A stretch of DNA of 64,000 bases from Minisyncoccota bacterium (GCA_041666915.1 JBAYFZ010000001.1:286335-350334), one strand, 5' to 3'. Positions 8,457 to 55,288 are shown, counted from the stretch's first letter. The notes: a model not told the origin generated them from the sequence alone. Numbers and translations are program-made.

Positions 8457-11450
8457 TTAGGCAACAACTATGTTTACGAGCTTATTTGGGACTACAATAA
8501 CTTTACGAATCTCCTTCCCTTCCAGCCACTTCTTAACTTCTGGAACTTCTTTGGCTAGTCTTTCTATATCTTCTTTACTTGTATCGGTCGGAGCTGTGAA
8601 TGAACCGCGAATCTTCCCACTAACCTGAACCATGATAGTAACCTCATTTTCCACCACCTTTTTGGGGTCATATACGGGCCATGGTGAGACGTGTATTGAT
8701 TTCTTGTTACCAAGTAAGGACCATAGTTCTTCAGTAAAATGTGGAGCAAATGGTGCGAGCAACTGGAGTATAGTTTCGTACTGTTTGCGACTAATAGAAA
8801 CAGATTTTTCCAATTCGTTTATGGCGATCATAAGAGCACTCACAGCTGTATTGAAACGCATTGCTTCAATATCGTCAGTGATCTTCTTTATAGTTTTATG
8901 GATAATCGCATCCACGTCTGCGCACTCTTTGGGCTGTGCCAGTTTCCCCTTCGTATCAACCTTTTCTCGAAGTTTCCAAACACGTTCAATGAATCTCCTA
9001 GTACCAACTATACTAGATGTACTCCAAGCAATCTGTTGATCAAAAGGACCCATAAACATCTCATAAAGTCTGAGGGAATCGGCTCCGTAATTTCCAACTA
9101 TTTCATCAGGATTGATAACATTTCCAAAACGTTTGGACATTTTTCTACCATCTTCCCCCATGATAAGACCGACATGTTGAAGTTTCAAAAATGGTTCTAT
9201 ATTGGAAACCACGCCGATATCATACAAAAATTTATGCCAAAAGCGAGCATAAATAAGATGTCGAGTAGCATGTTCAGCTCCACCTACATACACATCAACT
9301 GGTGACCAATACTTTTCCTTTTTTGGGTCAACGAGAACTTTGTTATTTTCTGGATCTTCATATCTCAAATAATACCAAGAGGAACCCGCCCATTGTGGCA
9401 TAGTATTGGTCTCTCTTTTGGCTGAACCTTTGCAGACTGGACACTTTACATTTACCCATTTTGAAATAGTAGCGAGTGGAGACTCTCCTGTTCCTGTAGG
9501 TTCATAAGATTTGACTCTTGGCAAAATGACAGGAAGATCTTTTTCTGGTACAGGAACAATGCCTTTTCCTTCAGGATTTATAAGAGCACAATTTTCGCAG
9601 CGAATGACTGGTATTGGTTCACCCCAATAACGTTGGCGAGAGAATACCCAATCTCGTAATTTGAATTTTGTAACCCACTGTCCACCAACCGATTCTGTTA
9701 TTTCTTTCTTAACTGATCCGGAAGATTTACCGTCAAATTTGCCGGAATTGATAAGTTTTCCATCTCCAGTAAAACAATTGGAGTTGGAGATATAAGCATT
9801 CCACATCAATTCAAAAGCAGAAAGATTCAACCAAGTCTTCATATCACTTCTTTTTATCCAAACTGTTTTATGGTTGACAACTTCTTCTTCTTTTACTATT
9901 GATTTTTCCTCATCCAATAATCTAAAAAGTACGCCTTGCCCAAAAGCATACCTATTAACATCCTTATGAGCAGCAAAGAAATGATTATGTTGTTCCATAC
10001 CTAAATCTTTTACATACTCAATATGAATGTATCCTGTTTCTTCTTTTATTTCACGAGCAGCAGCATCTTTATATGATTCACCATCATCAACTCCTCCAAT
10101 TATCCCCGAATGCCAATTAAACTTCTCCCAATCCAAACACAAAAACCTATCATTTTTCTCATCTAATAAAAGAGCGTAAATCGTTTTTCTCTTAACGGTT
10201 TCTTTATCTGGTCTAACATGATCTTTTCCTTCGCTATTAGTAGCGTAAGGTGCAATAACTTGTTTTATCTGTAACCCATACTTCTTTGCAAAAGCAAAAT
10301 CCCTCTCATCATGTGCTGGTACTGCCATGACAGCTCCTGTACCATATTCAGCCAAAACATAATCCGCTATCCAAACAGGAACCTCTTCATTGTTGACAGG
10401 ATTGACTGCTTTGACACCTTTCAACTCAACACCAGTCTTTTCTTTACCAGCATCCGTACGTTCAATATCAGTCTGTTTCTTGGTTTTATTTATATAATCC
10501 TCTACTTCTTGACGATTCTCAATATTTTTCAAAAATTCTGTCACTAACTTATGCTCTGGTGCCAAAACAACATAAGTCACACCAAATAATGTGTCTGGAC
10601 GAGTTGTATATACGTCTATTGTATCGTCATTTTTTATATTTGATTCTTGATTTTTAATTTTGAACTTTATCTCTGCTCCTTCACTTCTTCCTATCCAATT
10701 TCTCTGTAAGATCTTTATTGATTCCGGCCAATCAAGAAGTGGTATATCAAGATTTTTCTTAGCATCCAAATCATTGAGCAATCTCTCTGCGTAATCAGTA
10801 ATACGTAAAACCCACTGCCTCATAGGCTTCTTCTCCACCAACGTACCACAACGTTCACAGTGACCATCTTCTACATCTTCATTTGCCAAACCAGTTTTAC
10901 AAGAAGGACACCAATTGATAGGTTCAAACGATTCATAAGCCAAACCCTTTTTTAACAATTGCAAAAATATCCACTGAGTCCACTTATAATATTTTGGATC
11001 AGTAGTATTAACTTCACGTGACCAATCGTAATCAAAACCCATTATTTCCAATTGTTTTTTGTACCTAGCTACATTCTTTTTAACAGAATCCGCTGGATTG
11101 GTTTTTGTTTTCAAAGCATAATTCTCTGCCGGTAAACCAAAAGCATCAAATCCCATTGGATGAAGGATAGAATATCCAGCCATTCTCTTGTAACGAGAAA
11201 TGATATCGGTAGCTATATAACCTTTTGGATGACCAACATGGAGACCTTCACCAGATGGATATGGGAACATATCTAGCACATAATATTTCGGTTTCTTATT
11301 ATCTTCTTTAGATCTAAAAACCTTGGAACTCTCCCACTTCTTTTGCCACTTTTTCTCTATCTTAGCAGAATCGTAAACCGAAACTTTCGCAGTCACCTTC
11401 TTTGCAACCTTTACGGCTGTCTTTTTGGTTTTTTGGCTAGTCTTCTTCAT
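8457..11450 (-). CDS. leuS: leucyl-tRNA synthetase with an inserted Nudix-hydrolase-like domain
   Basis: 997 aa; HVGHPKG (HIGH), TTRPDTLFG editing motif, KMSKR, LRDWVFSRQRYWGEPIP; Nudix box GGVDDGESYKDAAAREIKEETGY at aa ~452-474. Confidence 0.95.
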   Translation of the reverse strand: MKKTSQKTKKTAVKVAKKVTAKVSVYDSAKIEKKWQKKWESSKVFRSKEDNKKPKYYVLDMFPYPSGEGLHVGHPKGYIATDIISRYKRMAGYSILHPMGFDAFGLPAENYALKTKTNPADSVKKNVARYKKQLEIMGFDYDWSREVNTTDPKYYKWTQWIFLQLLKKGLAYESFEPINWCPSCKTGLANEDVEDGHCERCGTLVEKKPMRQWVLRITDYAERLLNDLDAKKNLDIPLLDWPESIKILQRNWIGRSEGAEIKFKIKNQESNIKNDDTIDVYTTRPDTLFGVTYVVLAPEHKLVTEFLKNIENRQEVEDYINKTKKQTDIERTDAGKEKTGVELKGVKAVNPVNNEEVPVWIADYVLAEYGTGAVMAVPAHDERDFAFAKKYGLQIKQVIAPYATNSEGKDHVRPDKETVKRKTIYALLLDEKNDRFLCLDWEKFNWHSGIIGGVDDGESYKDAAAREIKEETGYIHIEYVKDLGMEQHNHFFAAHKDVNRYAFGQGVLFRLLDEEKSIVKEEEVVNHKTVWIKRSDMKTWLNLSAFELMWNAYISNSNCFTGDGKLINSGKFDGKSSGSVKKEITESVGGQWVTKFKLRDWVFSRQRYWGEPIPVIRCENCALINPEGKGIVPVPEKDLPVILPRVKSYEPTGTGESPLATISKWVNVKCPVCKGSAKRETNTMPQWAGSSWYYLRYEDPENNKVLVDPKKEKYWSPVDVYVGGAEHATRHLIYARFWHKFLYDIGVVSNIEPFLKLQHVGLIMGEDGRKMSKRFGNVINPDEIVGNYGADSLRLYEMFMGPFDQQIAWSTSSIVGTRRFIERVWKLREKVDTKGKLAQPKECADVDAIIHKTIKKITDDIEAMRFNTAVSALMIAINELEKSVSISRKQYETILQLLAPFAPHFTEELWSLLGNKKSIHVSPWPVYDPKKVVENEVTIMVQVSGKIRGSFTAPTDTSKEDIERLAKEVPEVKKWLEGKEIRKVIVVPNKLVNIVVA
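9816..10193 (-). other. Nudix (MutT-like) domain inserted in the CP1/editing region of LeuRS
   Basis: perfect Nudix box G-x5-E-x7-REUxEExGU plus flanking beta-strand pattern. Confidence 0.75.
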
Positions 11451-11514: not shown

Positions 11515-12537
11515 TCAATTATTAGCCCCAATTATCTTTTTCACTTCTCTATCAAAATCAGATTCAATATTTTGGTGCTTATTAAATTCCCTGTATTCAA
11601 AAATTGCCTTTGAATCAGCATCGGCTTTAGAAACACGTCCTTTTCCATCAAGGATCTTATACTCATTAAAAGAAAGAAACTTATCTACGCTTTCAGCAAA
11701 TTTTTTCATCGTAAATGTATTGCTTCTTTCAATCAAACCTTCAATATAATCAAAAAAACCTACAACCGTTCGTTCTAACTTCTTAATTTCGTTTTCTTCT
11801 AAATAATTTTTTGCAACGATAACATCAGATTGTAAGATTCTACCTACTGGTGATTTCTTCCACGTCAAAAGACCCATATGTGGTTTTTTAGAGTCTACTT
11901 TATTATAAATTATCTCTGGAGCAGTTTTACCAGTAATTGCAAAGTGAAATTTATTCTGCACCATTGCATAAAACTCATGACTGATACTGGAATCTTTATC
12001 GTAATCAACACTACATTCAGCAAAAATATCTGTTATTTGTTGGTAGATACGACGCTCACTCGCCCTAATTGAGCGAACGCGTTCAAGTAGTTCTTGAAAA
12101 TAGTCTGCATTAAATAACTTTCTACCCTGTTTCAAACGCTCATCATCAAGCACAAACCCTTTAATAATAAATTCACGAAGCACCTGTGTTGCCCAGATAC
12201 GAAAATGTGTAGCTCTTTTAGAATTTACTCTATACCCTACTGCAATAATCGCATCTAAATTGTAATAGGTTAGACTACGCTCAATATCTCTCCCTCCTTC
12301 ATTTTGAACTTGTAAGAAATCCTTACAAGTTGAATCCTTCACTAATTCACCAATTTCATAAACATTCTTCAAATGAAGCGTGATATTTTGTGGTGTAGTA
12401 TCAAAAAGCTCAGCTATCAACTTCTGGGTTAGCCAAATCATTTCTCCTTCTATACGGACTTCGACTTTAGGATCACCATTTTCTGTTGAAAAAATGAGAA
12501 ACTGAGCAGTAGTTTGTAGAAAATTAGTCTTCTTCAT
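11515..12537 (-). CDS. RhuM-family virulence/DNA-binding protein
   Basis: 340 aa; YYNLDAIIAVGYRVNSKRATHFRIWATQVLREF is characteristic of the RhuM family. Confidence 0.8.
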   Translation of the reverse strand: MKKTNFLQTTAQFLIFSTENGDPKVEVRIEGEMIWLTQKLIAELFDTTPQNITLHLKNVYEIGELVKDSTCKDFLQVQNEGGRDIERSLTYYNLDAIIAVGYRVNSKRATHFRIWATQVLREFIIKGFVLDDERLKQGRKLFNADYFQELLERVRSIRASERRIYQQITDIFAECSVDYDKDSSISHEFYAMVQNKFHFAITGKTAPEIIYNKVDSKKPHMGLLTWKKSPVGRILQSDVIVAKNYLEENEIKKLERTVVGFFDYIEGLIERSNTFTMKKFAESVDKFLSFNEYKILDGKGRVSKADADSKAIFEYREFNKHQNIESDFDREVKKIIGANN

Positions 12538-12545
12538 ATCCGAGA

Positions 12546-12574
12546 ATCATAGCTCAAAATGAAGAATGTTTCAA
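12546..12574 (-). promoter_or_regulatory. duplicated copy of the leuS promoter, driving rhuM
   Basis: 58-bp identity (12527-12584 vs 11449-11506) including the first four codons ATGAAGAAGACT. Confidence 0.4.
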
Positions 12575-12621
12575 AAGGAAAACCCCACTGTTCGCTTTCG
12601 CTACTAAGTGGGGTTGTGACG

Positions 12622-13155
12622 CTATTTGGGACTAAAGACAAAATTTCTCCAATAGTAATCGTCGAGCGACATCCATTCTCCTTTATGGAATACATGGGTG
12701 ACTTGTTGAAAAGTGAACTTGGGAAGGTCCACTTTGTGAGTGGAGATTCCAAAAGCCTTGATGACTTTGTAACCGAGGTCAACTGCAAATTCACAAAAAT
12801 GCTTTCCTCGTGGAATTTCCAATGTCCAGTTGAGATCTGATTTTTTTATATGATGACGACGAACAGCAGCCTCATAATACATAGATTTCTCAAATTCCTC
12901 AAAAAGTAACTGGAAGATCCTGGAATTAATCCTCTCAAAAATCTCTCGTGGAATCTCTCCGTCCAATGAAATAGAAAGTTCGACCATACGACCCATCTCC
13001 GATTTTATCTGAATAGCCTTGAGCCTAATTACATGACCAGAGACATTATCTACAAGGTCAGTGAGAACTACAAGGTCAGTGCGAAAACCCTCTCTCAAAC
13101 CTTCAGTCAGATTCCAACTAAACAACGTCTGATTCCAACTTCTGATTTTTTTCAT
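12622..13155 (-). CDS. hypothetical protein
   Basis: 177 aa ORF, no recognisable motif. Confidence 0.4.
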   Translation of the reverse strand: MKKIRSWNQTLFSWNLTEGLREGFRTDLVVLTDLVDNVSGHVIRLKAIQIKSEMGRMVELSISLDGEIPREIFERINSRIFQLLFEEFEKSMYYEAAVRRHHIKKSDLNWTLEIPRGKHFCEFAVDLGYKVIKAFGISTHKVDLPKFTFQQVTHVFHKGEWMSLDDYYWRNFVFSPK

Positions 13156-13562: not shown

Positions 13563-13590
13563 CCTAAACTTCGTGACACTACCATCTTCG
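13563..13590. repeat. att-like repeat copy A (tcctaaacttcgtgacactaccatcttc); reverse strand encodes DEDGSVTKFRI
   Basis: similarity to copies B, C, D and to the ychF C-terminus. Confidence 0.55.
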
Positions 13591-13610
13591 TCATATGTTA
13601 TGATACTAGT

Positions 13611-13862
13611 ATGAAATATTTCATATTCAGTATCGTAATTTTGATTAACATTGCGATCCACGCCCTATCTTCTGAAATTTCTGCCATCAGTCCTAATTTG
13701 TGGTTTATAATCCTTGTTCTGTTTTTAATCGGATATACTTACGCAGGGGTTCAATATATTCGACTTAAGAAAAGATACGCTGTCAGTATCATATTTTTTC
13801 TCTTGGCAATCTTTAACATCTTACCAATAATAGGATGGCTGGTTCTACGTTCTAATTTTTAG
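13611..13862 (+). CDS. small two-TM membrane protein (island remnant?)
   Basis: 83 aa, two hydrophobic helices; lies between att-like copies A and B. Confidence 0.3.
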   Translation: MKYFIFSIVILINIAIHALSSEISAISPNLWFIILVLFLIGYTYAGVQYIRLKKRYAVSIIFFLLAIFNILPIIGWLVLRSNF

Positions 13863-13863
13863 A

Positions 13864-13891
13864 TTTTAAACTCTATGACACTACCGTCTCC
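13864..13891. repeat. att-like repeat copy B (ttttaaactctatgacactaccgtctcc); reverse strand encodes GDGSVIEFKI*
   Basis: read directly. Confidence 0.6.
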
Positions 13892-14183
13892 ATAAAGTTG
13901 AAACCCCACCTCTGCTTTCGCTAGATGGTGGGGTTTTCCGTGTCGTTTTCGACCTACTCAGTGCTGTGTGCAATTTTTGCGCACGCAAGTGCTCCGAGAT
14001 AAGTGAACGCAACAAGGATGATTGTAAACCAGATAAACCCAGGCAAATCCGCCATTGTGGAGGACGGAACACCTTGATTCATCAGATGAACATGTATTGC
14101 TATAGGTCCAATCATAAGAACTCCTGGTTAAGGTTGAACTATATGGCACATTACCGTCTAATTTACGCTCTGTCCAGTTTCTT

Positions 14184-14216
14184 ATATCCTAAACTCTATG
14201 ACAGTACCATCTTCTC
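14184..14216. repeat. att-like repeat copy C (tatatcctaaactctatgacagtaccatcttct), candidate attL; reverse strand encodes EDGTVIEFRI*
   Basis: about 28/33 identical to copy D at 51842-51874. Confidence 0.65.
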
Positions 14217-14563
14217 AACACGAGGGCTATATTGTTAAAATAGCCCTATAAATCGGCGTAAACGCCAGTTTGCTCGTCTATTAAGCCCACAAATGCCCTT
14301 TTACGGCCTTAGTAGGCGAGCAAGCCTTTTTTGTTAAATTTTCAATTTGCTTACAACAAGGATTATACCAAGCGGTTGTTACATAGCAAGCTCCTTTGGC
14401 TTGTGTTTTCCCCACCTCACTTTTGCAGCCAAACGACCAATAGTCTGGTAGTGTTTTTTACCATACTTTTTCTTGGTCTTCTGACCGCCCTTTTTACCGA
14501 GCGCTTGTGCTGCCTTGTTCTTCACCAGGTAATTATACCAAGTGCTTCTTATTTCACAAAGGC

Positions 14564-15517
14564 CTATTTTCCTCTAAATTTACGATATCTTTGTTCAGCC
14601 TGTTTTCCATACATCATTGTGTAAACCATTGAGCTCTCAATACAGGAGTGACCGAGAATATTTGTGACGTCAGAGTTCGATCCTCCCTTTTCTATAATAT
14701 TTCTACCCATGTAATGTCTCATTGAGTGAGCATTCATATTCTTTTCAAGACCTGCTTTATTGGAATAGCCTCGAAGCATTTCACAAACACCGCTTTGTTT
14801 GAATCTGTATCCCCTAGTTTTGTTTGCACCAGAGTTATGGATTGATATAAATAATGCATTAGGATCACGCAGGACATTTCCACGCTTGAATCTTTCTCGT
14901 CTTTCAATCCATTTCTGAATCGCCTTGCTGGTTTCTTCAGTCCAGAAAATTTCTCGTAATGGTCTACGAGTTTTTGCCTTTTCAGTTTTAATAAGTGCTT
15001 TGTTGTTTACAAGATCCAAGTCATCCATATCAAGTGCCATAATTTCTCCGTTTCTAGCACCGGTATCCCAGAGCAATCTCACAATTGCTTCGTTTCTTAC
15101 ATTTCTAGGATCAGTATTCTGAGGAATGACACTGAGCAATTTTTTGTACTCCTCCTGAGTCGCAACTCGAGGTATCTTGTATTCCTTCTGAGGAATAGGT
15201 ATCAAGTTTTCGTTGAGGACCCTCCAACCTCTGAGGTTACAGAATTCGAAGAATTTCTTGTATGCCATGCATTTTGAAACGAAGCTATTATGCGACCATC
15301 CGATCTCTTTCATTAAATTCAAATATTCCATCATGTTATTTAACGTGATGTCTTCAATCTGTGGGTTACGCAAAAATAGGCAAAAAAGACGAAGGTCTTT
15401 GTCATTGCCTCTGGTAGTGGTACCGTTTATCTTAAACGTGCGCCAATTTGTAAATTCATCTATAGCATCTTTGAATAGCATATTAGTCAACCAAAAAGTC
15501 CACTCGATGCTAGTCAA
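14564..15517 (-). CDS. tyrosine-type site-specific integrase (phage integrase family)
   Basis: 317 aa; LWDTGARNGE (catalytic R), HSMRHYMG (H-x-x-R), GHSCIESSMVYT (catalytic Y). Confidence 0.9.
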   Translation of the reverse strand: MTSIEWTFWLTNMLFKDAIDEFTNWRTFKINGTTTRGNDKDLRLFCLFLRNPQIEDITLNNMMEYLNLMKEIGWSHNSFVSKCMAYKKFFEFCNLRGWRVLNENLIPIPQKEYKIPRVATQEEYKKLLSVIPQNTDPRNVRNEAIVRLLWDTGARNGEIMALDMDDLDLVNNKALIKTEKAKTRRPLREIFWTEETSKAIQKWIERRERFKRGNVLRDPNALFISIHNSGANKTRGYRFKQSGVCEMLRGYSNKAGLEKNMNAHSMRHYMGRNIIEKGGSNSDVTNILGHSCIESSMVYTMMYGKQAEQRYRKFRGK

Positions 15518-15880
15518 AGTGGACTTTTGGTGACGTCAGCTTCTTAATGAATTAATCGGCTTACGTCATTCCCAAGCTTGGGATACATACCCTTTCGGAT
15601 ATGCATTATCATCTTACTATCCCTACATGAATTAGCAAGATAAATGCTCAGGTCAAGTCCATTGCTAGCATCAGGCTGTTTCAATAGCCTAATCCCTCTC
15701 GGGACAATGGGTTCATATTCGGTTGTGCACTACATCCTAGTGTAGTGATTAGCTATTGTCAAGAAGGACTTTCTATTTTGTAGTGCTGTAAAATGAAAAT
15801 AGTCAAAATGTCAAGCAAAATAAGGGTATTTTGAACATAAAAAATAAAAGTCGCACCGTTTCTTAGGCGATGCGACAGTT

Positions 15881-16897
15881 TTATGCGATTCTTTCTCGCA
15901 TTTGTTCGAGGAAACTCACCACGCCCACATTCCGATACTGCGGAGTGGTCTTGTCACCCACATTTACAGGCATTGATACCCTAGGATACCTTCCCAGGAG
16001 CTCTCCTACCATGATTTCACGTCCCGTATCCCTTCCTATACGATCAAAGAGGCTAATCGCCATCTCTAGAAAGAAGGCGGATAACTCTCGAGCGTTGTCG
16101 GTAGGCAGACTTGTCCATTTCTCAATCATGCCGAATGGCAAGATATATGGAAATGCACAACTATGTCCTTCGACTGTCTGAATTGGTGCAAAGCTGTGAG
16201 CTTTAGGTTCACCAACTACACGTCCGCATCCTGGCATGAATGGAATAAGGTCTCGATCAGCGATCCATTCGACTAGATTCTCAAAGGCGTGAACAATTAC
16301 GAGCTCGCCTTGGAATGCTGGCTGAATGACAGTCCTTGCTCCGTTATCACAGAATCCAAGGATAACAGTTGCAATTTCAACACCTCGATTTTCAAGTTCC
16401 TTAAGAATATAAAGGCAAGTGTTACCCTTGAACACTCCTTCCTTAGCCAGAATTACTGGACGATAAGAAATCTTCCTAGCCAGCTCATCGAACTGACGAT
16501 CCAAATAATCAAATCCAGGACGGGGACCGTACCCGAGCATTTTTCCGTCCGTATCAAACAGTCGGTTAATGCTTAGGTTCAGTTTTTCATCACCGGAATT
16601 CAGGTCAGACATTTCGGAACATGTGACCAGGACTGCGTGCCGGTTGTTACCAGCAATACGACCATGAACTTGCTCCCAGATATTAATTCTGAGCTCATTC
16701 TTATCGATAGGACAAATCGTGACGTTTCCTAACGCTCTGACTACCCTTTCGAGAAGACTCTGGCGCAGTTGCTCAAACATCGGATCTTCTTGGCTTGGGA
16801 CCAGGAGACCCTTTGAGCGGAATGATTGAATACTGTTTGCTACGTCAAAGGAAACCACGCAGGTTCCCTGACCAAGTGCCGAATTGGCAGATTGCAT
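15881..16897 (-). CDS. hypothetical protein, first gene of the GC-rich block (possible degenerate PRTase-like fold)
   Basis: 338 aa; GC about 53 %; PVILAKEGVFKGNT loosely resembles a PRTase motif; no confident assignment. Confidence 0.45.
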   Translation of the reverse strand: MQSANSALGQGTCVVSFDVANSIQSFRSKGLLVPSQEDPMFEQLRQSLLERVVRALGNVTICPIDKNELRINIWEQVHGRIAGNNRHAVLVTCSEMSDLNSGDEKLNLSINRLFDTDGKMLGYGPRPGFDYLDRQFDELARKISYRPVILAKEGVFKGNTCLYILKELENRGVEIATVILGFCDNGARTVIQPAFQGELVIVHAFENLVEWIADRDLIPFMPGCGRVVGEPKAHSFAPIQTVEGHSCAFPYILPFGMIEKWTSLPTDNARELSAFFLEMAISLFDRIGRDTGREIMVGELLGRYPRVSMPVNVGDKTTPQYRNVGVVSFLEQMRERIA

Positions 16898-16985
16898 AGG
16901 AACCTCCTTTTTTATGGTTGTTTAAGTGACTACATTGAAAGAACACACCATGTCTAGTTTATATGAAATAGTAACAGAATACTAA

Positions 16986-17303
16986 TTATTTTTGCTCACC
17001 TTTCATTCTGTCGATCATCATTTTGTAGCCTCCACAACCTTCTTTCAGCCAACGATTAATTTTTGTGATCGTTACTGGAGACTCACCTGATTCTTCTTGT
17101 ATTTGAGAAAATGGAACACCTGCATCTAGTTTCTTTGCAACCTCCCAACGCATAGCAAATTCACGAAGATCTCTTTCACTCATAAGATCTCTGAAAAAAG
17201 CCTTGAGCTCGTCTTCATTCTTGAGCGACAAAAACACCTTGAGCAAGTCTGGAGACTTTTGCTCTAACTCAGACCATATTCCATTTTTTTCTTCATCTGT
17301 CAT
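16986..17303 (-). CDS. TrpR-like DNA-binding protein, YerC/YecD family
   Basis: 105 aa; LREFAMRWEVAKKLDAGVPFSQIQEESGESPVTITKINRWLK matches the YerC/YecD TrpR-like pattern. Confidence 0.6.
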   Translation of the reverse strand: MTDEEKNGIWSELEQKSPDLLKVFLSLKNEDELKAFFRDLMSERDLREFAMRWEVAKKLDAGVPFSQIQEESGESPVTITKINRWLKEGCGGYKMMIDRMKGEQK

Positions 17304-17387
17304 ATTTTTTACTATTATACCATAAAAAAGAGCGGTAACCTTGTTTCCAAAGTTACCGCCCGTGTGTCCATTCTATGGACCAAGGAA

Positions 17388-17705
17388 CTAATTACCGCGA
17401 ATCTTTGCGATCGCGAGGATCGTATCGCCGGATTCGACGATGTCATCGACACTGGCTTCCTGGCCGTTGCGTTGAATCTCGCAACGTTCCAAGTTTTTGA
17501 TGCCGATGACTGCGAAGAGTGCGCCAATCGTGATTTTCTTCGTGAGCGGGACCTCCTGGATTTCTCCAGGGATCTTGCCCACGCTCGCAATGGCGTCCTT
17601 CTGGATGACTGTGCAATCGGGGAGATTTGTCGTCTCGGGCCGATCCAACACTTCCACATGCGGCCGTTCAGCAGTCGCCGCCAACTGATTCATTCTGTTT
17701 TTCAC
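17388..17705 (-). CDS. ubiquitin-like beta-grasp protein (ThiS/MoaD-like) ending ..AKIRGN
   Basis: 105 aa; C-terminal IQRNGQEASVDDIVESGDTILAIAKIRG fits the ThiS/MoaD beta-grasp pattern; lies immediately downstream of the E1-like gene. Confidence 0.5.
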   Translation of the reverse strand: MKNRMNQLAATAERPHVEVLDRPETTNLPDCTVIQKDAIASVGKIPGEIQEVPLTKKITIGALFAVIGIKNLERCEIQRNGQEASVDDIVESGDTILAIAKIRGN

Positions 17706-17732
17706 TGTATTTTCCTTTCAAGGTTCAGAGGT

Positions 17733-18419
17733 TTAGTAGTTCTTGCTGAGAACGATCAGCGGCGAGAGCGAAACGATCGCCTCGTTCGCGAACTTTTTGT
17801 TATTCGCAAAGTTGATCATTGTGAACACCGCCATGCCAGCGAGAGTTGCCACTGTCGGAGCGATTGCTCGCCTCGTGCAGGGGCTTTCTTCCGCCTCAGC
17901 ATCAGAATACAACGTTTTTTCATACGCCGCAATCTGATTTGGCATTGCTGGTTTGATCGCATAAATGCGACCGCCTTCGGCTTCCATCCGTGTCTCAATC
18001 ATCAAGTCAACCTTGAGCTGATAGCGGACAGACGATTCCCAGATCGTCTTGCGGCTCTCCATTGTGTCGGTGAGCACGAAAACGATTCCTTTCAGCGATC
18101 CCTTTGTAAACTTCTTGGAGACCGCTTTGATCTTGATGCCGGTGCCGGCTTCGACCGCCTTAGCCAGCGCGTCGACCTTCTTTTTTCCGACATCCGCAAG
18201 TCCGAAGACCTGATTTGGCAGATTGTGATTCTCCACCTCATCGAAGTCATAGACCGTGATGTCTTTGCACCCCATCTTGGCCAAGAGCCAGACGATGTAG
18301 GAGCCGGTTGCACCGACGCCGATCACCGTGATTGGTTTCTTGAAGTTTGACGGGGCGAAGATGTCGAGCTGTCGCCAGTAGTCAGGTTCGCTTGTCGGCT
18401 TATTTTTTGCGGCCGCCAT
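17733..18419 (-). CDS. ThiF/MoeB/E1-like adenylyltransferase (Ubl-activating enzyme-like)
   Basis: 228 aa; Rossmann ITVIGVGATGSYIVWLLAKMG...DFDEVENHNLPNQ typical of E1-like enzymes. Confidence 0.85.
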   Translation of the reverse strand: MAAAKNKPTSEPDYWRQLDIFAPSNFKKPITVIGVGATGSYIVWLLAKMGCKDITVYDFDEVENHNLPNQVFGLADVGKKKVDALAKAVEAGTGIKIKAVSKKFTKGSLKGIVFVLTDTMESRKTIWESSVRYQLKVDLMIETRMEAEGGRIYAIKPAMPNQIAAYEKTLYSDAEAEESPCTRRAIAPTVATLAGMAVFTMINFANNKKFANEAIVSLSPLIVLSKNY

Positions 18420-19260
18420 ATCCCCCTCCTTTCGAATGGAATGAACCGTTCTTGACCTTGGCCTTGATCTCGTCGGCGATCGTCTTGCGACGGGTATCGT
18501 CTCCGAGGTGCATAAGCCAGGGGCAGTCGGTGATCTTCACCTTCTGCGTATAGTCGAAGAAATCGAAGACGCACTTGCCTCCTCGAGTGAAGATGCCGCG
18601 AATGAAGAACGGATTATGAGCGAAGAGCTCCATCTGTTCATCGTCCTGGCCCGACGGCTCGGTCATGTCTCCCGGGTGCAGATGCCCCCAGAAAAGCATG
18701 GAGTTGAGGACCGACTTGTTCGCGGGGTCCTGCTTCAGCATGTCCGTGTAGAACTTGCCGATGCTCCCCTGATCGAATTCGCAGTGCGCTCCGCTCACCT
18801 GTTGGTTGAAGAGGAACACTTTGCCGATGAGATACCTGTCGCCGTCCAGTTTTTGAACGGTGCCAAGCCACCCCACCTCGTCATTGCCCGCAGCTTCCAT
18901 GATGTAGTGCGTATCGGTGTACGCCTCGAGAGACAGAAGAATGGTCGGGATTTGCATCTCGGTCATCACTTCGATCTTCGCTTCCGCCTCATGCGGAACC
19001 AACGGCTTTATTGCTTCTTCGGCAAAGCCTGGACCGGTGTAGATGTCAGACTGATTTTTCACGTTTTGCTCCTTTCTTGGTTTGTTGAAGTTCGCACTCT
19101 CGGACTCCGAAGCCGCCGTTCCCTTCCAGGAACTGGATGACGTACTCCGGTTCTCCCTGTGCCCATTCTTCGGGAGGTTTGAGGCGGGTGATACGACAGC
19201 GTTTACCGTCGTTGCCGGTATACCCCGATGTGCCGCGATTCGTGTAAACACAAACCACAC
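18400..19260 (-). CDS. JAB/MPN (JAMM) metallopeptidase; true start may be internal
   Basis: 286 aa; E...HLHPGDMTEPSGQDD = E / HxH-x7-S-x2-D JAMM motif; 20-nt overlap with the E1 gene. Confidence 0.75.
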   Translation of the reverse strand: MWFVFTRIAAHRGIPATTVNAVVSPASNLPKNGHRENRSTSSSSWKGTAASESESANFNKPRKEQNVKNQSDIYTGPGFAEEAIKPLVPHEAEAKIEVMTEMQIPTILLSLEAYTDTHYIMEAAGNDEVGWLGTVQKLDGDRYLIGKVFLFNQQVSGAHCEFDQGSIGKFYTDMLKQDPANKSVLNSMLFWGHLHPGDMTEPSGQDDEQMELFAHNPFFIRGIFTRGGKCVFDFFDYTQKVKITDCPWLMHLGDDTRRKTIADEIKAKVKNGSFHSKGGGYGGRKK

Positions 19261-19271
19261 CCATCTGGTAT

Positions 19272-20177
19272 TTATGATTCGGCGTTTTCATTCCGCTTAC
19301 CTCCCTTCTTCTTTTTGGCAACTGGCCAGTTGAATATTTCCGAATACGGACGATACTGATCTGAGCACTCATAGCTCTTGAGGTACTGGATGCATACCGA
19401 TACAGCTGCAGCGTATTTGTGCTCCGCAATCATGTGAGGCAGAACCTCTTGGATATTGCCGAGACAAGGCACGCCGTACGCTTCAATATGTGGATGGTGA
19501 TAGCCATCCGGGGTGCGAGTAAGATTCATCATTCTCACCGCCCCATCCTTGCCGACAGAATCGATCGCGATCTTGAACCGGCCAATGTCATAATCAACCT
19601 GTCGGTAGTTTATGAAAATGGGACCGGTATAAGCCACGATTTTTTTGCCGACAACCTCTAGTCGCTCGATGTCTGGATGCTTCATCAGTTGCTCAAATTC
19701 GTCACCGAACCGAGCAAGTGAAGCTTCATCAGTCCCAGCAACAACTTGTAGCTGTTGCTGTTTTTCTTCCAAGCGACGAAGGAAACCTACTAGCTGTTCT
19801 TGGCATTTCTCAATACCTGCACGCAACTTCGTAGTCTCCTGCTTCAGCTCGCGCACACGCTCGGCCTTGCGGTTGTAGCCGCAGAGCTCCATGTATTTGC
19901 GCTTCAGAATGTCTTGTGAGTTCGCTTTGGGTTTCCCTTTGGCGCTCGTATGACCGTTTTGGCTGAAATGTCCCAGATAGACGCCTTGGTAATCCGTTCG
20001 AACTTTCGTGACTTGGCTTTTGGCCACGCCGAGAATCTCGCAGAGTTCACCAAGGTCTTCCATTTGAACACCGACACATGCGTCACCGTTGATACGGAGA
20101 CGAGTGGTCTTGAGTCCAGCGAGACTTTCGCCTCGTAGACTCCGTTGCGGGAACGCAACAATGGTTCCAGTCTTCAT
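19272..20177 (-). CDS. E2 (UBC)-like ubiquitin-conjugating enzyme with N-terminal HTH/coiled-coil extension
   Basis: 301 aa; HHPHIEAYGVPCLGNI resembles the E2 HPN-x-G-x-C-L active-site motif, preceded by a beta-rich segment. Confidence 0.55.
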   Translation of the reverse strand: MKTGTIVAFPQRSLRGESLAGLKTTRLRINGDACVGVQMEDLGELCEILGVAKSQVTKVRTDYQGVYLGHFSQNGHTSAKGKPKANSQDILKRKYMELCGYNRKAERVRELKQETTKLRAGIEKCQEQLVGFLRRLEEKQQQLQVVAGTDEASLARFGDEFEQLMKHPDIERLEVVGKKIVAYTGPIFINYRQVDYDIGRFKIAIDSVGKDGAVRMMNLTRTPDGYHHPHIEAYGVPCLGNIQEVLPHMIAEHKYAAAVSVCIQYLKSYECSDQYRPYSEIFNWPVAKKKKGGKRNENAES

Positions 20178-20212
20178 TATTTGACCTCTTGACTTTCTTG
20201 ACGTGGTTTTGA

Positions 20213-20455
20213 CTAGTCCTTCAGGCAGACGTCAACCGCCCGAAGCACTTTTTGACCTTGCTCTCCATCCAGAGAGCCAACAAGGAAGGTAACGTTCAGA
20301 CCCTGAGCAAGCTCAAAGTTGTTACGTGTTGAAGCGACGACAAATTTTTGTCCGTCGTGCTCGCTTTGCTGATCTTTGACCCGCACCTTCCAGACCGGCT
20401 TGTCGCGAGAAGCATTTCTGCCCACCACGAATCCTGCATGGCGTTTATGGACCAT
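20213..20455 (-). CDS. hypothetical small protein upstream of the E2-like gene
   Basis: 80 aa ORF in the same GC-rich block and strand; an alternative overlapping ORF 20296-20556 looks spurious. Confidence 0.3.
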   Translation of the reverse strand: MVHKRHAGFVVGRNASRDKPVWKVRVKDQQSEHDGQKFVVASTRNNFELAQGLNVTFLVGSLDGEQGQKVLRAVDVCLKD

Positions 20456-20590
20456 ATGACTTGCTCCTTTGCTGGATAAACCAGCGATTTCAATGACCTT
20501 GCGGCAACGCGCCGCGTGTTCCTAAGGCAATCTTTCAGCCTATGGAATCTGAGCACAACCTAACATAATTAATAGGTTGTGTCAATAATC

Positions 20591-21469
20591 TTACAATGTC
20601 GAATTATAGGATTCCTTAATTAAATCAAAAAGATAATTTACGTCAGTATCGATATCAAATTTTACCATCCCACTATATCCCCATTCATTGCTAGTTATAT
20701 CTTTGACCATCTTCTGCTCATCGCTCGGATATTTTGGATCTCTAAGTAGCACCTGAATCCAAGTCTTTCTAAACTCAAATCTCGTGAAGCTTTTTGTGGT
20801 GCGGTAAGTAATACCAGTCTTTTGTCCGAGTTTTTCCTCAACAGACGCCAATTTCAGAATCAAATCACGGATTTCGTTAAACTTTTTCTGCATTTCCGGA
20901 GTCGTGATTCCAGTGTGATAGGAAAGATTGTATTCTTCTTTTCCCGTTTCAATAGATTGAGCTTTCTTCCCATTTGTCTTCTCTGGCATAGGACTATACT
21001 GAGGTTCTACATGTAGCACGTCTCCATCGTATAAAGTATAGGTTTTCAATTCAACATTAGACATTGTCTGGACCGCAGCTTTTATATATCTATCAAATCC
21101 CTGAGCAATTAAAATCACACGCGGCTGATCCCAGCTCACATGACCTTTATCACCAAGACGATCTTTTACCAGAAGTTCAAAATGCTTCTTATTTTTAAGT
21201 AACCAGTTCAAGTAAAACAAACCCTGAGCTAGCACTTCTTCGTTCTCTTTCCATTTATATTCGATAATGACCGGAGAATCGTTTTCATCAATACCAAGTG
21301 TATCAATCCTTCCGTCAGTAGTTTGGTATTCCTTTGCAAGAAATCTTACCCCGAGAATTTCCTCCAAATTTTCAGCAAAAAAATCACGAAGTTCAAATTC
21401 ATTTCCAAAACCATCACGTTTAAGACTGAGTTGGTTCGCCTTTCTTTGATTTATCTTAAATATCGGCAT
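20591..21469 (-). CDS. PD-(D/E)xK nuclease-like N-terminal domain protein with uncharacterised C-terminal domain
   Basis: 292 aa; GRIDTLGIDENDSPVIIEYKWKEN contains the D..E.K motif. Confidence 0.45.
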   Translation of the reverse strand: MPIFKINQRKANQLSLKRDGFGNEFELRDFFAENLEEILGVRFLAKEYQTTDGRIDTLGIDENDSPVIIEYKWKENEEVLAQGLFYLNWLLKNKKHFELLVKDRLGDKGHVSWDQPRVILIAQGFDRYIKAAVQTMSNVELKTYTLYDGDVLHVEPQYSPMPEKTNGKKAQSIETGKEEYNLSYHTGITTPEMQKKFNEIRDLILKLASVEEKLGQKTGITYRTTKSFTRFEFRKTWIQVLLRDPKYPSDEQKMVKDITSNEWGYSGMVKFDIDTDVNYLFDLIKESYNSTL

Positions 21470-21517
21470 TTCCTTTAATTAAAAGATAATACTACGAAAT
21501 AGAGGCGTTGTCCAGTT

Positions 21518-23278
21518 TTATAGCTCTGAATACTCGAAGCCGAGGAAAGGCTTTGCTCTTGTAAACTCAGCCTTCTTAACTTTTTCTATATCAAATTCAA
21601 AATCTTTTTGAATGCTTTCAAATTCATCCTTATTAATAGTTAGGATGTATTGGAATTGATGTTTTTTTGAAAGGTTGAAAAGATAATTGAGAGAACGAAC
21701 CATATCATCGCGACCAGTAGATGCAAAAATATTGTCATGTATGAGAAATTTAGGGTGTCTCTCAGAAGTGATTTTATTTACCATTAGCAATGTGTCGTAT
21801 ATGAATGTTTTTATCCGATTAATACCGGAGCTTCCATCCAATTTGATTCTATAATCAAATTCAACAAAACTAGCAGAAGATTCGTTAACATTAATTTGAA
21901 ACTGACAGTGCTTGTTCCCCGCTATATAGTCATGCATTTTCTTTAAATCATCTTCGAATGCAGATACTGTAGATTGTATTTTAAAGATTGTCTGCTCGAG
22001 TTCTTCAATTAAACCTTCCTTCTTCTTTTTAAGGGACTTCTGTTGGGATATTTTAGCCTGCAATATTTCATATGTTTGGGAAAGCTTCTCAAGCTCCATG
22101 TTTTTTTCTCGCTCAAGTTTAACGGCTTCTTTAATGCCATTTATGACTTCTTTTGCTTCCGTCTTGGAGTAGATTTTTGCTATTTCATTATCAATTCTTG
22201 AAATTTGTTCATCGACTGCAGTAATCTCAACATTAAGCTCCTTAAGTTTTTCACCCATTAGCGTATTCTGGAAATCGTCGACTTGTTTTTTAAATTCAAC
22301 AACCTGATCGAATGACTTCTGAACCATATCACCAAGCCCGGTCTTAAAATGATTGTATATGATTTGAACCTGTTTTGTATTTATTTTCTCAAGCTGTGGA
22401 AGAGATTTTATCTTTTTTACTAGATATTCCTTGCTTGCTTTTGTAGTCACTAACTTTTCAAGCTGAATTTGAAGATCGTTAAGGCGATCTTTCAGTTGCA
22501 CCATCCCCTCTGATGGATGTAACTCTTCGATGGCCAAATTAAGCTTTTCTATACTGTCCTTCAGCTCATTTATGTGAGAAGCAACCTCTTTTACCTCAAT
22601 TCCAGCATTTCTAAAGTCCTGCCTCAAATCTGCAGTAGTTTTAGATACATTTTTTAGATCTTGGGAAACCTTTTTTATTTTTTCGATAATATCTAAATTG
22701 ATTTGAAAAAGATAAAAATGTGGCTTTAGTAAATCCTCAAAGGAACTGACTGAAGAGCTCCGGTGTGGCTTCAAGATATCGCTATATAGGCTGTCTTCTT
22801 CTCTTATGAGAATTGATAGCAGGCTCCTGAAGGATGGCTTATCAGGATTGGTGTCATCAAGAAGGAGGTACGACAAATATTTCTTTGCTTCTTCAAGTTT
22901 ATCAAAGGTTTTTTCATCATCGTCGACAACAATAATAATTGGATCATTCTCGACTCGATTGCGTTTGATTGTAACTTTTCTGATTCGATTTTTAGACTCA
23001 ACTTCTATATCTAAGCATATGTATATTTTTGGATTGAGACTAATATCAGGTATTTTTGTGATTCTACTTTCATCTGCCCTTTTAAGAAAACAATAATTTA
23101 TAGCCTCGATAAGCAATGATTTACCCACACCATTCATCTTTTCTCGTTCTTTTTTATTTTCTATGTTCTCAGATTTTTCTCCAACAATAAAATTCAAGCC
23201 ACGGTCAAATTCTATGGATTTAAGTTCCTTTTTGTTGAATTCTTTTGGCTCAAATGATAATCGTCGAATTGTAATCAT
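21518..23278 (-). CDS. coiled-coil ABC/SMC-like ATPase (ABC-3C-type ATPase candidate)
   Basis: 586 aa; Walker A MNGVGKSLLIEAINY at N-terminus, long coiled coil, C-terminal PKFLIHDNIFASTGRD (Walker B/D-loop). Confidence 0.75.
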   Translation of the reverse strand: MITIRRLSFEPKEFNKKELKSIEFDRGLNFIVGEKSENIENKKEREKMNGVGKSLLIEAINYCFLKRADESRITKIPDISLNPKIYICLDIEVESKNRIRKVTIKRNRVENDPIIIVVDDDEKTFDKLEEAKKYLSYLLLDDTNPDKPSFRSLLSILIREEDSLYSDILKPHRSSSVSSFEDLLKPHFYLFQINLDIIEKIKKVSQDLKNVSKTTADLRQDFRNAGIEVKEVASHINELKDSIEKLNLAIEELHPSEGMVQLKDRLNDLQIQLEKLVTTKASKEYLVKKIKSLPQLEKINTKQVQIIYNHFKTGLGDMVQKSFDQVVEFKKQVDDFQNTLMGEKLKELNVEITAVDEQISRIDNEIAKIYSKTEAKEVINGIKEAVKLEREKNMELEKLSQTYEILQAKISQQKSLKKKKEGLIEELEQTIFKIQSTVSAFEDDLKKMHDYIAGNKHCQFQINVNESSASFVEFDYRIKLDGSSGINRIKTFIYDTLLMVNKITSERHPKFLIHDNIFASTGRDDMVRSLNYLFNLSKKHQFQYILTINKDEFESIQKDFEFDIEKVKKAEFTRAKPFLGFEYSEL

Positions 23279-23517
23279 TATTTTATGCGATAAATATATG
23301 GCTCATCAAAATCAATTAGTCCGTTCATGTACAAAAAAATTAGAGCATACATTGAATTACTATAATTAAATTGTCTACCACTTTGCTTCAAAATTTCATA
23401 GAGATCGAAAATAGAAATCCTTTCCTGGTTTTTCAACTCTTTCAAAACTAAATAACCAGCATATACGCTTGAGTCTTTTATATCCTGATCTTGTGATATT
23501 AAAATATTGCTTGTCAT
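23278..23517 (-). CDS. small helical protein, candidate ABC-3C middle component
   Basis: 79 aa; stop overlaps ATPase start (ATGA); size and position fit the middle-component role. Confidence 0.45.
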   Translation of the reverse strand: MTSNILISQDQDIKDSSVYAGYLVLKELKNQERISIFDLYEILKQSGRQFNYSNSMYALIFLYMNGLIDFDEPYIYRIK

Positions 23518-23521
23518 ATAT

Positions 23522-24061
23522 TTATTCGAGTGGGTTTGGAAAAACGTTACACTCTATCAGCTGCTTATACAAAAAATACTCGACAGCCTCAGAACTAAAA
23601 CTTTTTTCTGCACTATTTTCAAACTTATCTGCAAATAATTTACATAAGGAATTCAATGCGTCTACGGGATTGTTCTTCTTCTCAGAAAGTATTTGCAAGC
23701 TTAGATTCCTTAAATAACTGCAGAGTTCTTCGTAGGCAAATTCATCTATACCCGAATTGTTCTTAGCCTCATCGTATGAGCTCCGATATAGAACATGCAA
23801 ATTTCCGAATCTAGATTTAAGCGTGTCTTTATATTCAGCAAAACGCTCCTCAATTTTTTTGAAAAAATCCTTTGGGTAATCAATCAGATCGGGTGTAACA
23901 CCTCTTTCGCGAGCAATTTCAGGAATAAGATTAATCACCTGAAGCATTGTATTCACTTCATTCGCAAGCTTTACTTTATTCCCATATTCAACCTTATTGT
24001 CATTTCCAAAAATTATTGGTGACTGGCCGCCTATGGTTTTTTGATCAATATTTGTTGCCAT
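23522..24061 (-). CDS. hypothetical protein, candidate third component of the ABC-3C-like operon
   Basis: 179 aa, 4 nt upstream of the 79-aa gene, same strand. Confidence 0.4.
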   Translation of the reverse strand: MATNIDQKTIGGQSPIIFGNDNKVEYGNKVKLANEVNTMLQVINLIPEIARERGVTPDLIDYPKDFFKKIEERFAEYKDTLKSRFGNLHVLYRSSYDEAKNNSGIDEFAYEELCSYLRNLSLQILSEKKNNPVDALNSLCKLFADKFENSAEKSFSSEAVEYFLYKQLIECNVFPNPLE

Positions 24062-24214
24062 TAATATTTTACTGAGTTTCGATCGCCCATAACGTTTGGT
24101 GACTTATCACCCTTCGTCTTTTGGATTTTCTTAACCCAGTAAAAATGCATTGCAACACCTCCCAACGTCAGACCTATAATAAAGCTAATTGTGACATTTA
24201 AAGTGATTTCCATA
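24062..24214 (-). CDS. small single-TM protein (50 aa), first ORF of the operon (below the ORF-track cutoff)
   Basis: translation MEITLNVTISFIIGLTLGGVAMHFYWVKKIQKTKGDKSPNVMGDRNSVKY; its TAA overlaps the downstream ATG (TAATG). Confidence 0.3.
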
Positions 24215-24294
24215 TAAAAATAATTATAGCACTAATGGCGTGCAATGTTAACTTTTTATTCACCGACTCCCAGACTACTCAAAAGTAGTAATTC

Positions 24295-25056
24295 TTAGAT
24301 TTTTTGAAACACAAATAGATGCTCGTGCATTATTAGCAAAAAATTTGATTCCTTTGATTTTGTAACCCAGAATCCAGTAGCTTTACAGTTGAATTGTCTC
24401 TTTATGATGTCTTCTTTGAGAAGCAATCCTGATTTCAAAAAACGATCCATCACTTTGTATGCGAGTGGCTGGTACAATTTTTTTCGCCTCGTATCTCCCA
24501 TAAGGATTGCACAAAACTTGCCGGGTTTTAGAACCCTATAAAATTCTCTTGCAACTTTTTCCATCTCATCACAAAAGACATCAATATCACTAATGTTTGA
24601 TAGGTCGTCTACTAACTTTCCTTCACTGTACTTAATGATATCTACATATGGTGGATGAGTGAGTACGAAGTCTACAGTATTATCTTTTATTTTTGATAGG
24701 TTACGTGAATCCCACTTGAATCCTCTTTGCCACGCTTTATTATCAACCTTAAAATTTAGAGATTTCTTTGTACGATCAAGTGCTACTTGATTCACGTCAG
24801 AATAAATAATATTTCTATTCAGAATCCTTGCCTCAATTGCTGTAGTACCACCACCAATCATTGAATCAAGTAAAACATCACCTTCTTTTGAGTATCGAAG
24901 AATGAGATTTCGAGCTACTTCTGGGGACCAGTTACCCCGCCAATCTGATGTATGAGTTGCCCAATTACCACGACGAGGAAAAGCCCAGACCGTTGTACAT
25001 TCTAGTTCGAATTCTTCCGGGTGCAGTTTTAATTCTGTAGCTTTCTTTATTGCCAT
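24295..25056 (-). CDS. DNA methyltransferase (N6-adenine/N4-cytosine class), second MTase of the GATC R-M system
   Basis: 253 aa; motif I DSMIGGGTTAIEA and motif IV THPPY. Confidence 0.8.
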   Translation of the reverse strand: MAIKKATELKLHPEEFELECTTVWAFPRRGNWATHTSDWRGNWSPEVARNLILRYSKEGDVLLDSMIGGGTTAIEARILNRNIIYSDVNQVALDRTKKSLNFKVDNKAWQRGFKWDSRNLSKIKDNTVDFVLTHPPYVDIIKYSEGKLVDDLSNISDIDVFCDEMEKVAREFYRVLKPGKFCAILMGDTRRKKLYQPLAYKVMDRFLKSGLLLKEDIIKRQFNCKATGFWVTKSKESNFLLIMHEHLFVFQKI

Positions 25057-25062
25057 GGGTAT

Positions 25063-25920: not shown

Positions 25921-25922
25921 GT

Positions 25923-51841: not shown

Positions 51842-51874
51842 TATATCTTAAACTCTATGAGACCTCCATCTTCT
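51842..51874. repeat. att-like repeat copy D (tatatcttaaactctatgagacctccatcttct), candidate attR; reverse strand encodes EDGGLIEFKI*
   Basis: about 28/33 identical to copy C. Confidence 0.65.
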
Positions 51875-55234: not shown

Positions 55235-55288
55235 AAAATTACTTACCAGAAAATCCTATCATAAATAGTACCCCCTGTGTATAACCAG

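Follow-up and report, generated by a model that had tools for sequence, protein, structure and literature searches.

The question raised by this locus is whether a short run of minus-strand genes inside a prophage encodes a complete pathway for joining a protein that resembles ubiquitin (a ubiquitin-like protein, Ubl) with other proteins and, if it does, what such a pathway is used for. The DNA analyzed is a stretch of 64,000 nucleotides (nt) from a Minisyncoccota bacterium (GCA_041666915.1 JBAYFZ010000001.1:286335-350334), referred to here as the window; all coordinates are positions in it, and all genes of the cassette lie on its minus strand. That Ubl conjugation in bacteria is functional and can stop phages was demonstrated only recently, and only for three families, Bil, Bub, and CBASS. 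We consider it probable that six closely spaced open reading frames (ORFs) within 17330–20585 form an operon for a self-contained Ubl-conjugation pathway, which was recently acquired as prophage cargo, acts as a weapon in conflict, and represents a large family for which no description was found.

The six genes, in operon order, are p80 (20213–20455; 80 amino acids, aa), a gene for an E2-like protein (19272–20177; 301 aa), p81 (19046–19291; 81 aa), a gene for a JAB/JAMM metallopeptidase (18400–19062; 220 aa), one for an E1-like adenylyltransferase with a single ThiF domain (17733–18419; 228 aa), and one for a beta-grasp Ubl (17388–17705; 105 aa from a GTG, or 101 aa from the ATG at 17693). An initial annotation of this DNA had described a complete cassette of four consecutive genes of the E2, JAB, E1, and Ubl types. 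The ORFs that it quoted (19272–20177, 18400–19260, 17733–18419, and 17388–17705) are real, every motif it cited was found, and folds and motifs support all four assignments. The genes are not consecutive, however: p81 separates E2 from JAB, with its start overlapping the E2 stop and its own stop overlapping the JAB start. The JAB gene most likely begins at the GTG at 19062, which is preceded by an AAAGGAG site, rather than at 19260. Ribosome-binding sites were also seen for p80, the first gene of the operon (AAGGAG, 8 nt upstream), and for p81 (GGGAGG, 7 nt before the ATG), and the p80, 81-aa, and 220-aa genes were called in an independent Logan assembly as well.

We infer the catalytic steps, the cap model, and the place of E2 as substrate receptor from sequences, models, and comparisons. 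The Ubl would be made as a capped precursor ending in ...KIRG-N, and JAB would strip the cap, exposing Gly104. The ThiF-type E1, probably as a homodimer, would then adenylate the Gly104 carboxylate, possibly followed by a Ubl thioester on Cys181. From there the Ubl would be handed to Cys238 of the E2, whose HPH...C loop matches the loop of canonical E2s. No E3 would be needed: the N-terminal domain and coiled coil of the E2, perhaps together with p81, would select the target, the Ubl would be joined to a target lysine, and JAB could also undo the tag. The role of the pathway would be that of a weapon in phage–host or phage–phage conflict. For the prophage copy in the window, the exclusion of competing phages is slightly favored, because this copy adjoins restriction–modification and Abi-like genes.

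The E2-like protein has an N-terminal alpha/beta domain (residues 1–71), a long coiled-coil helix (87–147), and a C-terminal domain predicted to have the UBC fold. It matched nothing in Pfam, NCBIfam, PHROG, or PADLOC, and a single-sequence search of the PDB returned only noise. An AlphaFold model made with 20 sequences had a predicted local distance difference test (pLDDT) score of 76.8 and gave two alpha/beta parts, one at each terminus, joined by a helix of 60 residues. The top 13 Foldseek matches of this model were all E2s (probability up to 0.96). The best structural matches were eukaryotic and archaeal E2s, such as UbcH5/UBE2D2 and UbcH7, and the fold searches, which matched eukaryotic E2s, returned zero bacterial E2s. 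When a 60-sequence profile was aligned by hhalign with UBE2D2, a P value of 6e-4 was obtained, with the beta-sheet, the active-site loop, and the next helix in register; the loop HPHIEAYGVPCLGNI pairs with HPNINSNGSICLDIL of UbcH5 at every residue. His228, Pro229, His230, Cys238, and Gly240 are invariant in the homologues, the His-Pro-His triplet preceding the candidate catalytic Cys238 by 8 residues, and His248 varies. The invariance of Cys238 answers a check that the initial annotation had proposed for its E2 assignment. By its modeled UBC fold and an HPN-type loop followed by a Cys, the protein belongs to the E2/UBC superfamily. Compared with canonical E2s (UbcH5/UBE2D2, UbcH7), identity is only about 11–18%, the Asn of HPN is a His, the C-terminal helices are truncated, and the UBC part is fused to an N-terminal domain and a coiled-coil segment; the partner is a minimal E1, and there is no RING or HECT E3.

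The E1-like protein gave one Pfam match, to ThiF (3.7e-23, residues 30–208). Its motifs are GVGATGS, DFDEVE, DFDEVENHNLPNQ, D113..R119, and Cys181; of the features that mark ThiF/MoeB/E1 adenylyltransferases (a Rossmann GxGxxG loop, DxD...NLxRQ, a Mg-binding Asp, and a crossover-loop Cys), the Arg of NLxRQ is replaced by Asn here. Across 17 homologues, GxGxxGS, DxDxVE, the Mg-site Asp, and Cys181 within ESPCTRRAIAP are kept; Cys181, the cysteine whose conservation had likewise been put forward as a check, is conserved in at least 90% of them. Its equivalence with Cys184 of ThiF is drawn only from the full-length span of the alignment, and the C-terminal half alone had no match in a PDB sequence search. 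In the PDB, the full protein matched TcdA, MccB, Uba1, and ThiF. The CBASS E1-E2 model of PADLOC matched its Rossmann part at 3e-12. The best NCBIfam matches were ThiF/MoeB models, yet they lay far under the curated cut-offs: no curated ThiF, MoeB, or PRTRC model reached its cut-off, and among the PRTRC models only PRTRC_ThiF matched, scoring 37 bits where its cut-off is 144.75. The locus is accordingly not a PRTRC (ParB-related, ThiF-related) cassette, in which PRTRC proteins A-F and ParB accompany the ThiF-family protein. This E1 is the smallest among the described bacterial conjugation systems compared.

The peptidase carries a complete zinc motif, E62...H127-x-H129-x7-S137-xx-D140, and this E...HxHx7SxxD site assigns it to the JAMM/MPN+ enzymes. 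Among 12 homologues, these five residues show little or no variation, which bears out the zinc ligands that the initial annotation had asked to see conserved. The 220-aa protein gave no usable match in Pfam, NCBIfam, PHROGs, or PADLOC (the PADLOC JAB models matched at 1.3e-3), and a single-sequence PDB search gave noise only. A profile of the 12 sequences matched archaeal Rpn11-like, JAMM1, Rpn11, and CSN5 chains with E values of 1.4e-3 to 2e-2. Among 50,697 GenBank phages, tblastn found one weak match for JAB and none for E2.

The Ubl has about 35 disordered N-terminal residues and ends in ...AIAKIRG-N. In the core of its model (pLDDT 87–91), the secondary structure elements follow one another as beta-beta-alpha-beta-beta, as in a beta-grasp. 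As far as the models go, then, the E2 and Ubl ORFs have UBC and beta-grasp folds and do not fall into unrelated ones, which the initial annotation had named as grounds for refuting it. The Ubl of the window had no usable match in Pfam, NCBIfam, PHROGs, or PADLOC and only noise in a single-sequence PDB search; its counterpart in a distant cassette (L012) matched Pfam ThiS at 8e-12. That counterpart is a 307-aa protein with two ThiS-family stretches and a Ub-Mut7C match. In three large-phage contigs of IMG/VR (L014, L016, and L023), the likely Ubl has 150 aa and a coiled-coil N-terminus, is encoded upstream of E2, and ends in ...KVAGG followed by I or NAC.

The C-terminus of the Ubl was compared across the family. 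In the close subfamily it reads ...KI[RK]GN, followed by nothing, Q, G, TN, or ten residues; RGN is invariant and the majority stop exactly at N. In the wider family it reads ...PK[VI]EGG plus 1–6 residues of variable length and sequence, and only 2 of the 72 Ubls detected end exactly at GG. The Ubl is almost always capped after its last Gly, which argues for obligatory maturation by JAB, and we infer that the terminal Asn is such a cap. Cap removal would need JAB, which would explain why this gene accompanies nearly every cassette. A comparable arrangement is known from type II Bil, where as many as nine residues without conservation come after a conserved Gly of the Ubl, and where cleavage by the JAB behind this Gly was demonstrated (PMC10557695); the Gly and tail are alike here, and the cleavage is predicted by analogy.

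The family to which the cassette belongs is large. Whereas a word-indexed search gave no more than 19 E2 relatives, 1.84 billion cluster representatives searched with a profile yielded 3,557 at E ≤ 1e-3, a count that may take in matches to the coiled coil only; at E ≤ 1e-10 there were 1,910, and at E ≤ 1e-30 there were 237. The members have 183–1,072 aa and variable N-termini, and almost all of the 150 that were listed carry the conserved module C-terminally; ten sampled members had no Pfam domains. A degenerate DNA pattern for HPH[IV]xxxGxPCLGN was then used to find related loci. It matched 15 stretches on 14 viral contigs of 12–231 kb in IMG/VR and more than 119 metagenome stretches among the matches listed. 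Fetching by this E2 motif alone yielded 122 non-redundant loci, 51 of which include 2 kb or more of sequence downstream of E2. They were scanned with small hidden Markov models built here, so that the gene counts are lower bounds: E1 was present in 45/51, JAB in 43/51, both in 41/51, and a detectable Ubl in 33/51. The gene order is E2-JAB-E1, with the Ubl after E1 or before E2. The order of the window, E2-JAB-E1-Ubl, recurs in four further loci (L001, L005, L007, L012) and in viral contigs of IMG/VR, and the pattern is unbroken in more than 100 related loci scanned for these four families. The family is not described in the databases or the literature searched, although that literature is incomplete and a prior description is possible.

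In several loci, extra E2 paralogues share one JAB-E1-Ubl set: a dozen loci have two, a 94.6-kb viral contig (L002) has three, and L009 (2550–16651 of a 1.17-Mb metagenome contig) has a JAB-E1-Ubl set followed by eleven E2 paralogues, an AAA ATPase, and a nucleotidyltransferase, the largest array seen. When five relatives were compared, identity always fell in the order E1 > JAB > Ubl > E2. The E2 is thus the component that evolves fastest in all five comparisons, and its N-terminal domain is its least conserved part. This rapid evolution, together with the arrays of 2, 3, and 11 paralogues, fits a role of the E2 as specificity factor. The E1 of a Saccharibacteria copy (L001) is 94.5% identical in protein and about 75% in DNA to that of the window. 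The ratios of nonsynonymous to synonymous substitution rates (dN/dS) against this copy, at a dS near saturation, were 0.03 for E1 and 0.11 for E2, and they show purifying selection on the genes. As read from these sequence comparisons, the operon is real and under selection.

The small protein p81 gave no usable match in Pfam, NCBIfam, PHROGs, or PADLOC. Its domain does, however, form the N-terminal part of E2-like proteins in two cases: BLASTP gave 64% identity to residues 3–66 of P0010 and 58% to residues 7–70 of P0159. This fusion in relatives points to a functional link between p81 and the E2. The product of p80 had no match in Pfam, PHROG, PADLOC, or NCBIfam and no homologue in the other loci fetched.

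Does the cassette belong to a system that is already known? The initial annotation had called it Bil-type. Its four-part composition is indeed that of class 6d/Bil (BilA Ubl, BilB E2, BilC JAB, BilD E1; Iyer 2006 classes 6d/6c): the same four protein classes are encoded by separate genes, there is no E3, the E2 is the presumed target picker, the Ubl has a conserved Gly and a putatively removable tail as in type II Bil, and the genes are found among defense genes. The agreement ends with the enzymes. The E1 of Bil has tandem IAD-AAD domains plus a CYS domain (PMC11601596, PMC10557695), whereas here it is one ThiF domain of 228 aa. In the class 6d E2s of Iyer 2006, the classical His is missing and a His that follows the Cys is conserved instead (also Chambers 2023); here HPH precedes Cys238, His248 is not invariant, and the E2 retains the HP[N/H]...C loop next to a long coiled coil and a variable N-terminal domain. 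The order E2-JAB-E1-Ubl, the arrays of E2 paralogues, and the frequent occurrence in viral contigs also differ, and the sequence models go unmatched. In PADLOC (v2.0.0), neither the E2 nor the Ubl had a match, and only the CBASS E1-E2 and JAB models were matched. This release presumably includes Bil/ISG15-like models. BilB and BilD chains did not appear in the PDB sequence or fold searches. We therefore regard it as very unlikely that the cassette is a plain member of Bil.

The Bub system (6E/DUF6527) is also a bacterial Ubl-E1-E2 pathway with a peptidase, but its E1 and E2 lack a catalytic Cys and use oxyester chemistry, its peptidase is a DUF6527 serine protease, and its genes are fused. Here Cys181 of the E1 and Cys238 of the E2 are conserved, the genes are separate, and a Pfam scan gave no DUF6527 match. 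Type II CBASS (Cap2/Cap3) supplied the sole PADLOC matches (E1-E2 at 3e-12, JAB at about 1e-3), but it conjugates its CD-NTase, has no separate Ubl, and has a fused E1-E2, which are separate here; models of CD-NTases and effectors gave zero matches, in Pfam and PADLOC, among the operon proteins and three flanking gene products. Judging from the protein architectures, the cassette represents a family that stands apart from Bil, from Bub, and from type II CBASS.

Several observations weigh against the pathway as we propose it. No E2-docking or CYS domain is recognizable in the E1, so the transfer from E1 to E2 is unexplained. In a comparison with a MoeB sequence, the Arg of the ThiF/MoeB motif NLxRQ is replaced by Asn (NLPNQ). 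Many members of the family lie in large, apparently lytic phage contigs near replication genes, which argues against a purely defensive role. The terminal Asn of the Ubl is conserved in the subfamily, unlike the non-conserved tails of Bil, and a near relative (L110) ends in ...KIRGG, with a second G in place of this Asn; the cap model accounts for neither, and the terminal residue itself may have a function. MccB activates the C-terminal Asn of the microcin C precursor, and the E1 could act on the Ubl in the same manner, giving a succinimide or another non-canonical linkage. Such a reactive Asn would agree with the invariant RGN, with the exact end at N in the majority of members, with the Gly of L110 at the Asn position, and with MccB being among the best PDB matches of the E1. 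The MccB match, however, is limited to residues 29–88, the shared Rossmann segment, some relatives extend beyond the N by Q, G, TN, or ten residues, and the wider family keeps G or GG followed by variable tails, which is the pattern of a removable cap. We hold a reactive Asn to be improbable.

Another explanation is a sulfur-carrier system of the ThiS/MoaD-ThiF/MoeB type (CysO, QbsE), with which the cassette has in common an E1 reduced to a single domain, a ThiS/MoaD-like beta-grasp protein, and a JAMM for trimming the C-terminus. The cassette would then make a thiocarboxylate for the synthesis of cofactors or metabolites and not a protein tag, with the JAMM as maturase, as in CysO/Mec+ or QbsE/QbsD. 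Sulfur carriers trimmed by a JAB do exist (Iyer 2006), and the top NCBIfam matches of the E1 are of this class, but at scores far below the cut-offs. Here the obligatory partner is a protein of the UBC fold whose Cys is conserved, linked in almost every one of the more than 100 loci, and sulfur transfer would have no use for several E2 paralogues in one locus. A rhodanese domain is absent. Neighboring genes for a sulfur carrier, which the initial annotation had accepted as grounds for giving up its reading, were not found: there are no thiamine, molybdopterin, or cysteine-synthesis genes, and none for siderophore sulfur transfer, in the gene calls and ORF lists of the nine loci inspected in detail. 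This is the least probable of the explanations considered.

A more serious alternative keeps the same biochemistry and changes its user. The pathway may be a tool of phages, with which they tag host proteins for takeover or counter-defense, or their own virion or replication proteins, and the prophage copy would reflect phage ancestry. Apart from L002, with its three E2 paralogues, 13 of the IMG/VR contigs found by the motif scan (12–231 kb) carry the family, the cassette of one viral contig (L017) stands beside primase-helicase and Sak4-like annealing genes, and arrays of E2s with differing N-termini would suit many targets. The copy in the window lies instead at the lysogeny or moron end, near DpnII-type restriction–modification, DUF2326/PDC-M68B, and PDC-S18-like genes, and not in an early or structural module. 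Copies in CPR (Candidate Phyla Radiation) chromosomes (L001, L005, L007) have no obvious phage neighbors, and the characterized relatives, Bil and CBASS, are defensive (PMC11601596). We see the phage tool as possible, at odds well short of even, and take the conflict weapon as the working interpretation.

Tentatively, the locus could be the first example of a large group of ubiquitination systems encoded by phages, in which the E2, with its variable N-termini, its arrays of up to 11 paralogues, and no E3, is a diversifying substrate receptor, the Ubl stays inactive until JAB removes its short cap, and phages, those of CPR (Candidate Phyla Radiation) bacteria among them, rewrite the proteomes of hosts or rival phages. 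The active-site loop of the E2 is closer to eukaryotic E2s than any characterized bacterial E2 appeared in these searches, which bears on the origin of the canonical E2. The locus points to a further family next to those with demonstrated activity, with about 1,900 representatives (E ≤ 1e-10), a near-canonical E2 loop, capped Ubls, and many phage copies. If active, it would offer a minimal and tractable set of E1, E2, deubiquitinase, and Ubl for biochemistry, a test of offensive ubiquitination by phages, and a rare view of conflict systems in CPR prophages.

The cassette is bounded by putative control signals. Upstream of p80, a likely promoter/operator region (20554–20585, minus strand) contains TTGACA (20585–20580), and an 8-bp inverted repeat, CACAACCT-12 nt-AGGTTGTG, overlaps this hexamer and may be an operator. 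It sits at the switch from AT-rich to GC-rich DNA, where the GC content jumps upstream of the cassette. The operon ends just past the Ubl gene at what reads as a strong intrinsic terminator (17330–17361, minus strand), with a 14-bp stem and a T-run. The terminator (17361–17330) coincides with a homology breakpoint at 17304.

Beyond it lie a YerC/TrpR-like gene, which meets the NCBIfam cut-off (YerC/YecD, 4.4e-16), and a 338-aa gene with 143 homologues, many annotated as PF00156 (Pribosyltran). The initial annotation had grouped these two and the 80-aa ORF with the cassette as a seven-gene block of possible extra components or regulators. The 80-aa ORF is part of the operon, as its first gene, but the other two lie beyond the terminator at 43.9% GC, in a separate module: the block of TrpR, 338-aa gene, and integrase recurs in other CPR contigs after entirely different genes and without the cassette, and every other cassette locus examined is without the two genes. 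The YerC/TrpR-like protein was considered as a regulator of the operon and set aside in view of the terminator, the homology breakpoint, and its absence from all other cassettes.

DNA homology to one such contig (L010) spans 17304 to 14183 at 90% identity. Host synteny was considered as the explanation for this integrase, YerC, and 338-aa block and rejected: between the window and L010, the integrases agree at 100% identity, whereas the neighboring LeuRS reaches only 75%, and the integrase end of a mobile element is therefore preferred. The block at 14183–17304 appears from this comparison to be a shared integration module that exchanges cargo, L010 carrying a different one.

Its outer end adjoins an att-like direct repeat. 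A search with a 25-mer allowing mismatches found four direct-repeat copies of the 25–30-bp sequence TAAACTCTATGACACTACCATCTTC in the window (at most 3 mismatches; 0 expected by chance); matches of exact 13-mers had looked like chance. One copy marks the left end (14190–14214, plus strand), next to the tyrosine recombinase/integrase gene (14564–15517, minus strand; Pfam Phage_integrase, 2.1e-26) and close to position 14183, where the homology to L010 stops. Another marks the right end (51849–51873, plus strand), between the last phage gene and the host gene ychF. On the strength of these repeats, the cassette is cargo of a 37.7-kb integrated element in a small-genome Candidatus Paceibacterota (CPR) bacterium.

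The phage genes of the element, at 27.2–51.7 kb, include an SU10-type portal, a replication protein O domain, AAA_24, DNA methylases, and an amidase; the portal protein had no tblastn match among the 50,697 GenBank phage records. The cassette stands between the amidase (27231–27836) and the integrase, inside the repeat-bounded element, in agreement with the moron position assigned to it earlier. The interval between amidase and cassette holds a DpnII-type restriction–modification set (an endonuclease and two methyltransferases), an MC6-domain protein with DUF2326 (PADLOC PDC-M68B, 1.5e-45; LmuB-like), and a PDC-S18-like protein (NucS_C + DUF5655, 5.9e-68).

The GC content is 52.3% in the cassette, 45.0% in the phage core, and 37–39% in the host flanks, which confirms the contrast reported initially. 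The defense/restriction block (20591–26879), at 34.8%, is below both host and phage and therefore represents a third compositional source. Other copies of the cassette match the GC of their flanks, whereas that of the window differs, which speaks for recent acquisition. With its foreign GC and the repeat-bounded element around it, the cassette can be regarded as horizontally acquired prophage cargo, as had been proposed.

Some further features of the element and its surroundings were noted. To the left of the integrase there are three tandem direct copies of the att-like repeat (13565, 13867, and 14190) at intervals of about 300 bp, separated only by small ORFs; no tRNA or Rfam RNA was found at 13565–14214, and the array looks like the scars of serial integration at one site. 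Between this array and the LeuRS gene, a RhuM-family protein and a 177-aa ORF (11515–13155) are encoded, which are absent from this position in related contigs. The LeuRS itself (997 aa, 8457–11450) has an internal precomputed Pfam match to NUDIX that is weaker in relatives. The prophage also has two orphan DNA methylases, one of the N6/N4 type (45113–46420) and one of the C5 type (47254–48393). In the host flank at 55161–55813 there are two divergent tRNA-Ala genes, with GGC and TGC anticodons, 500 bp apart.

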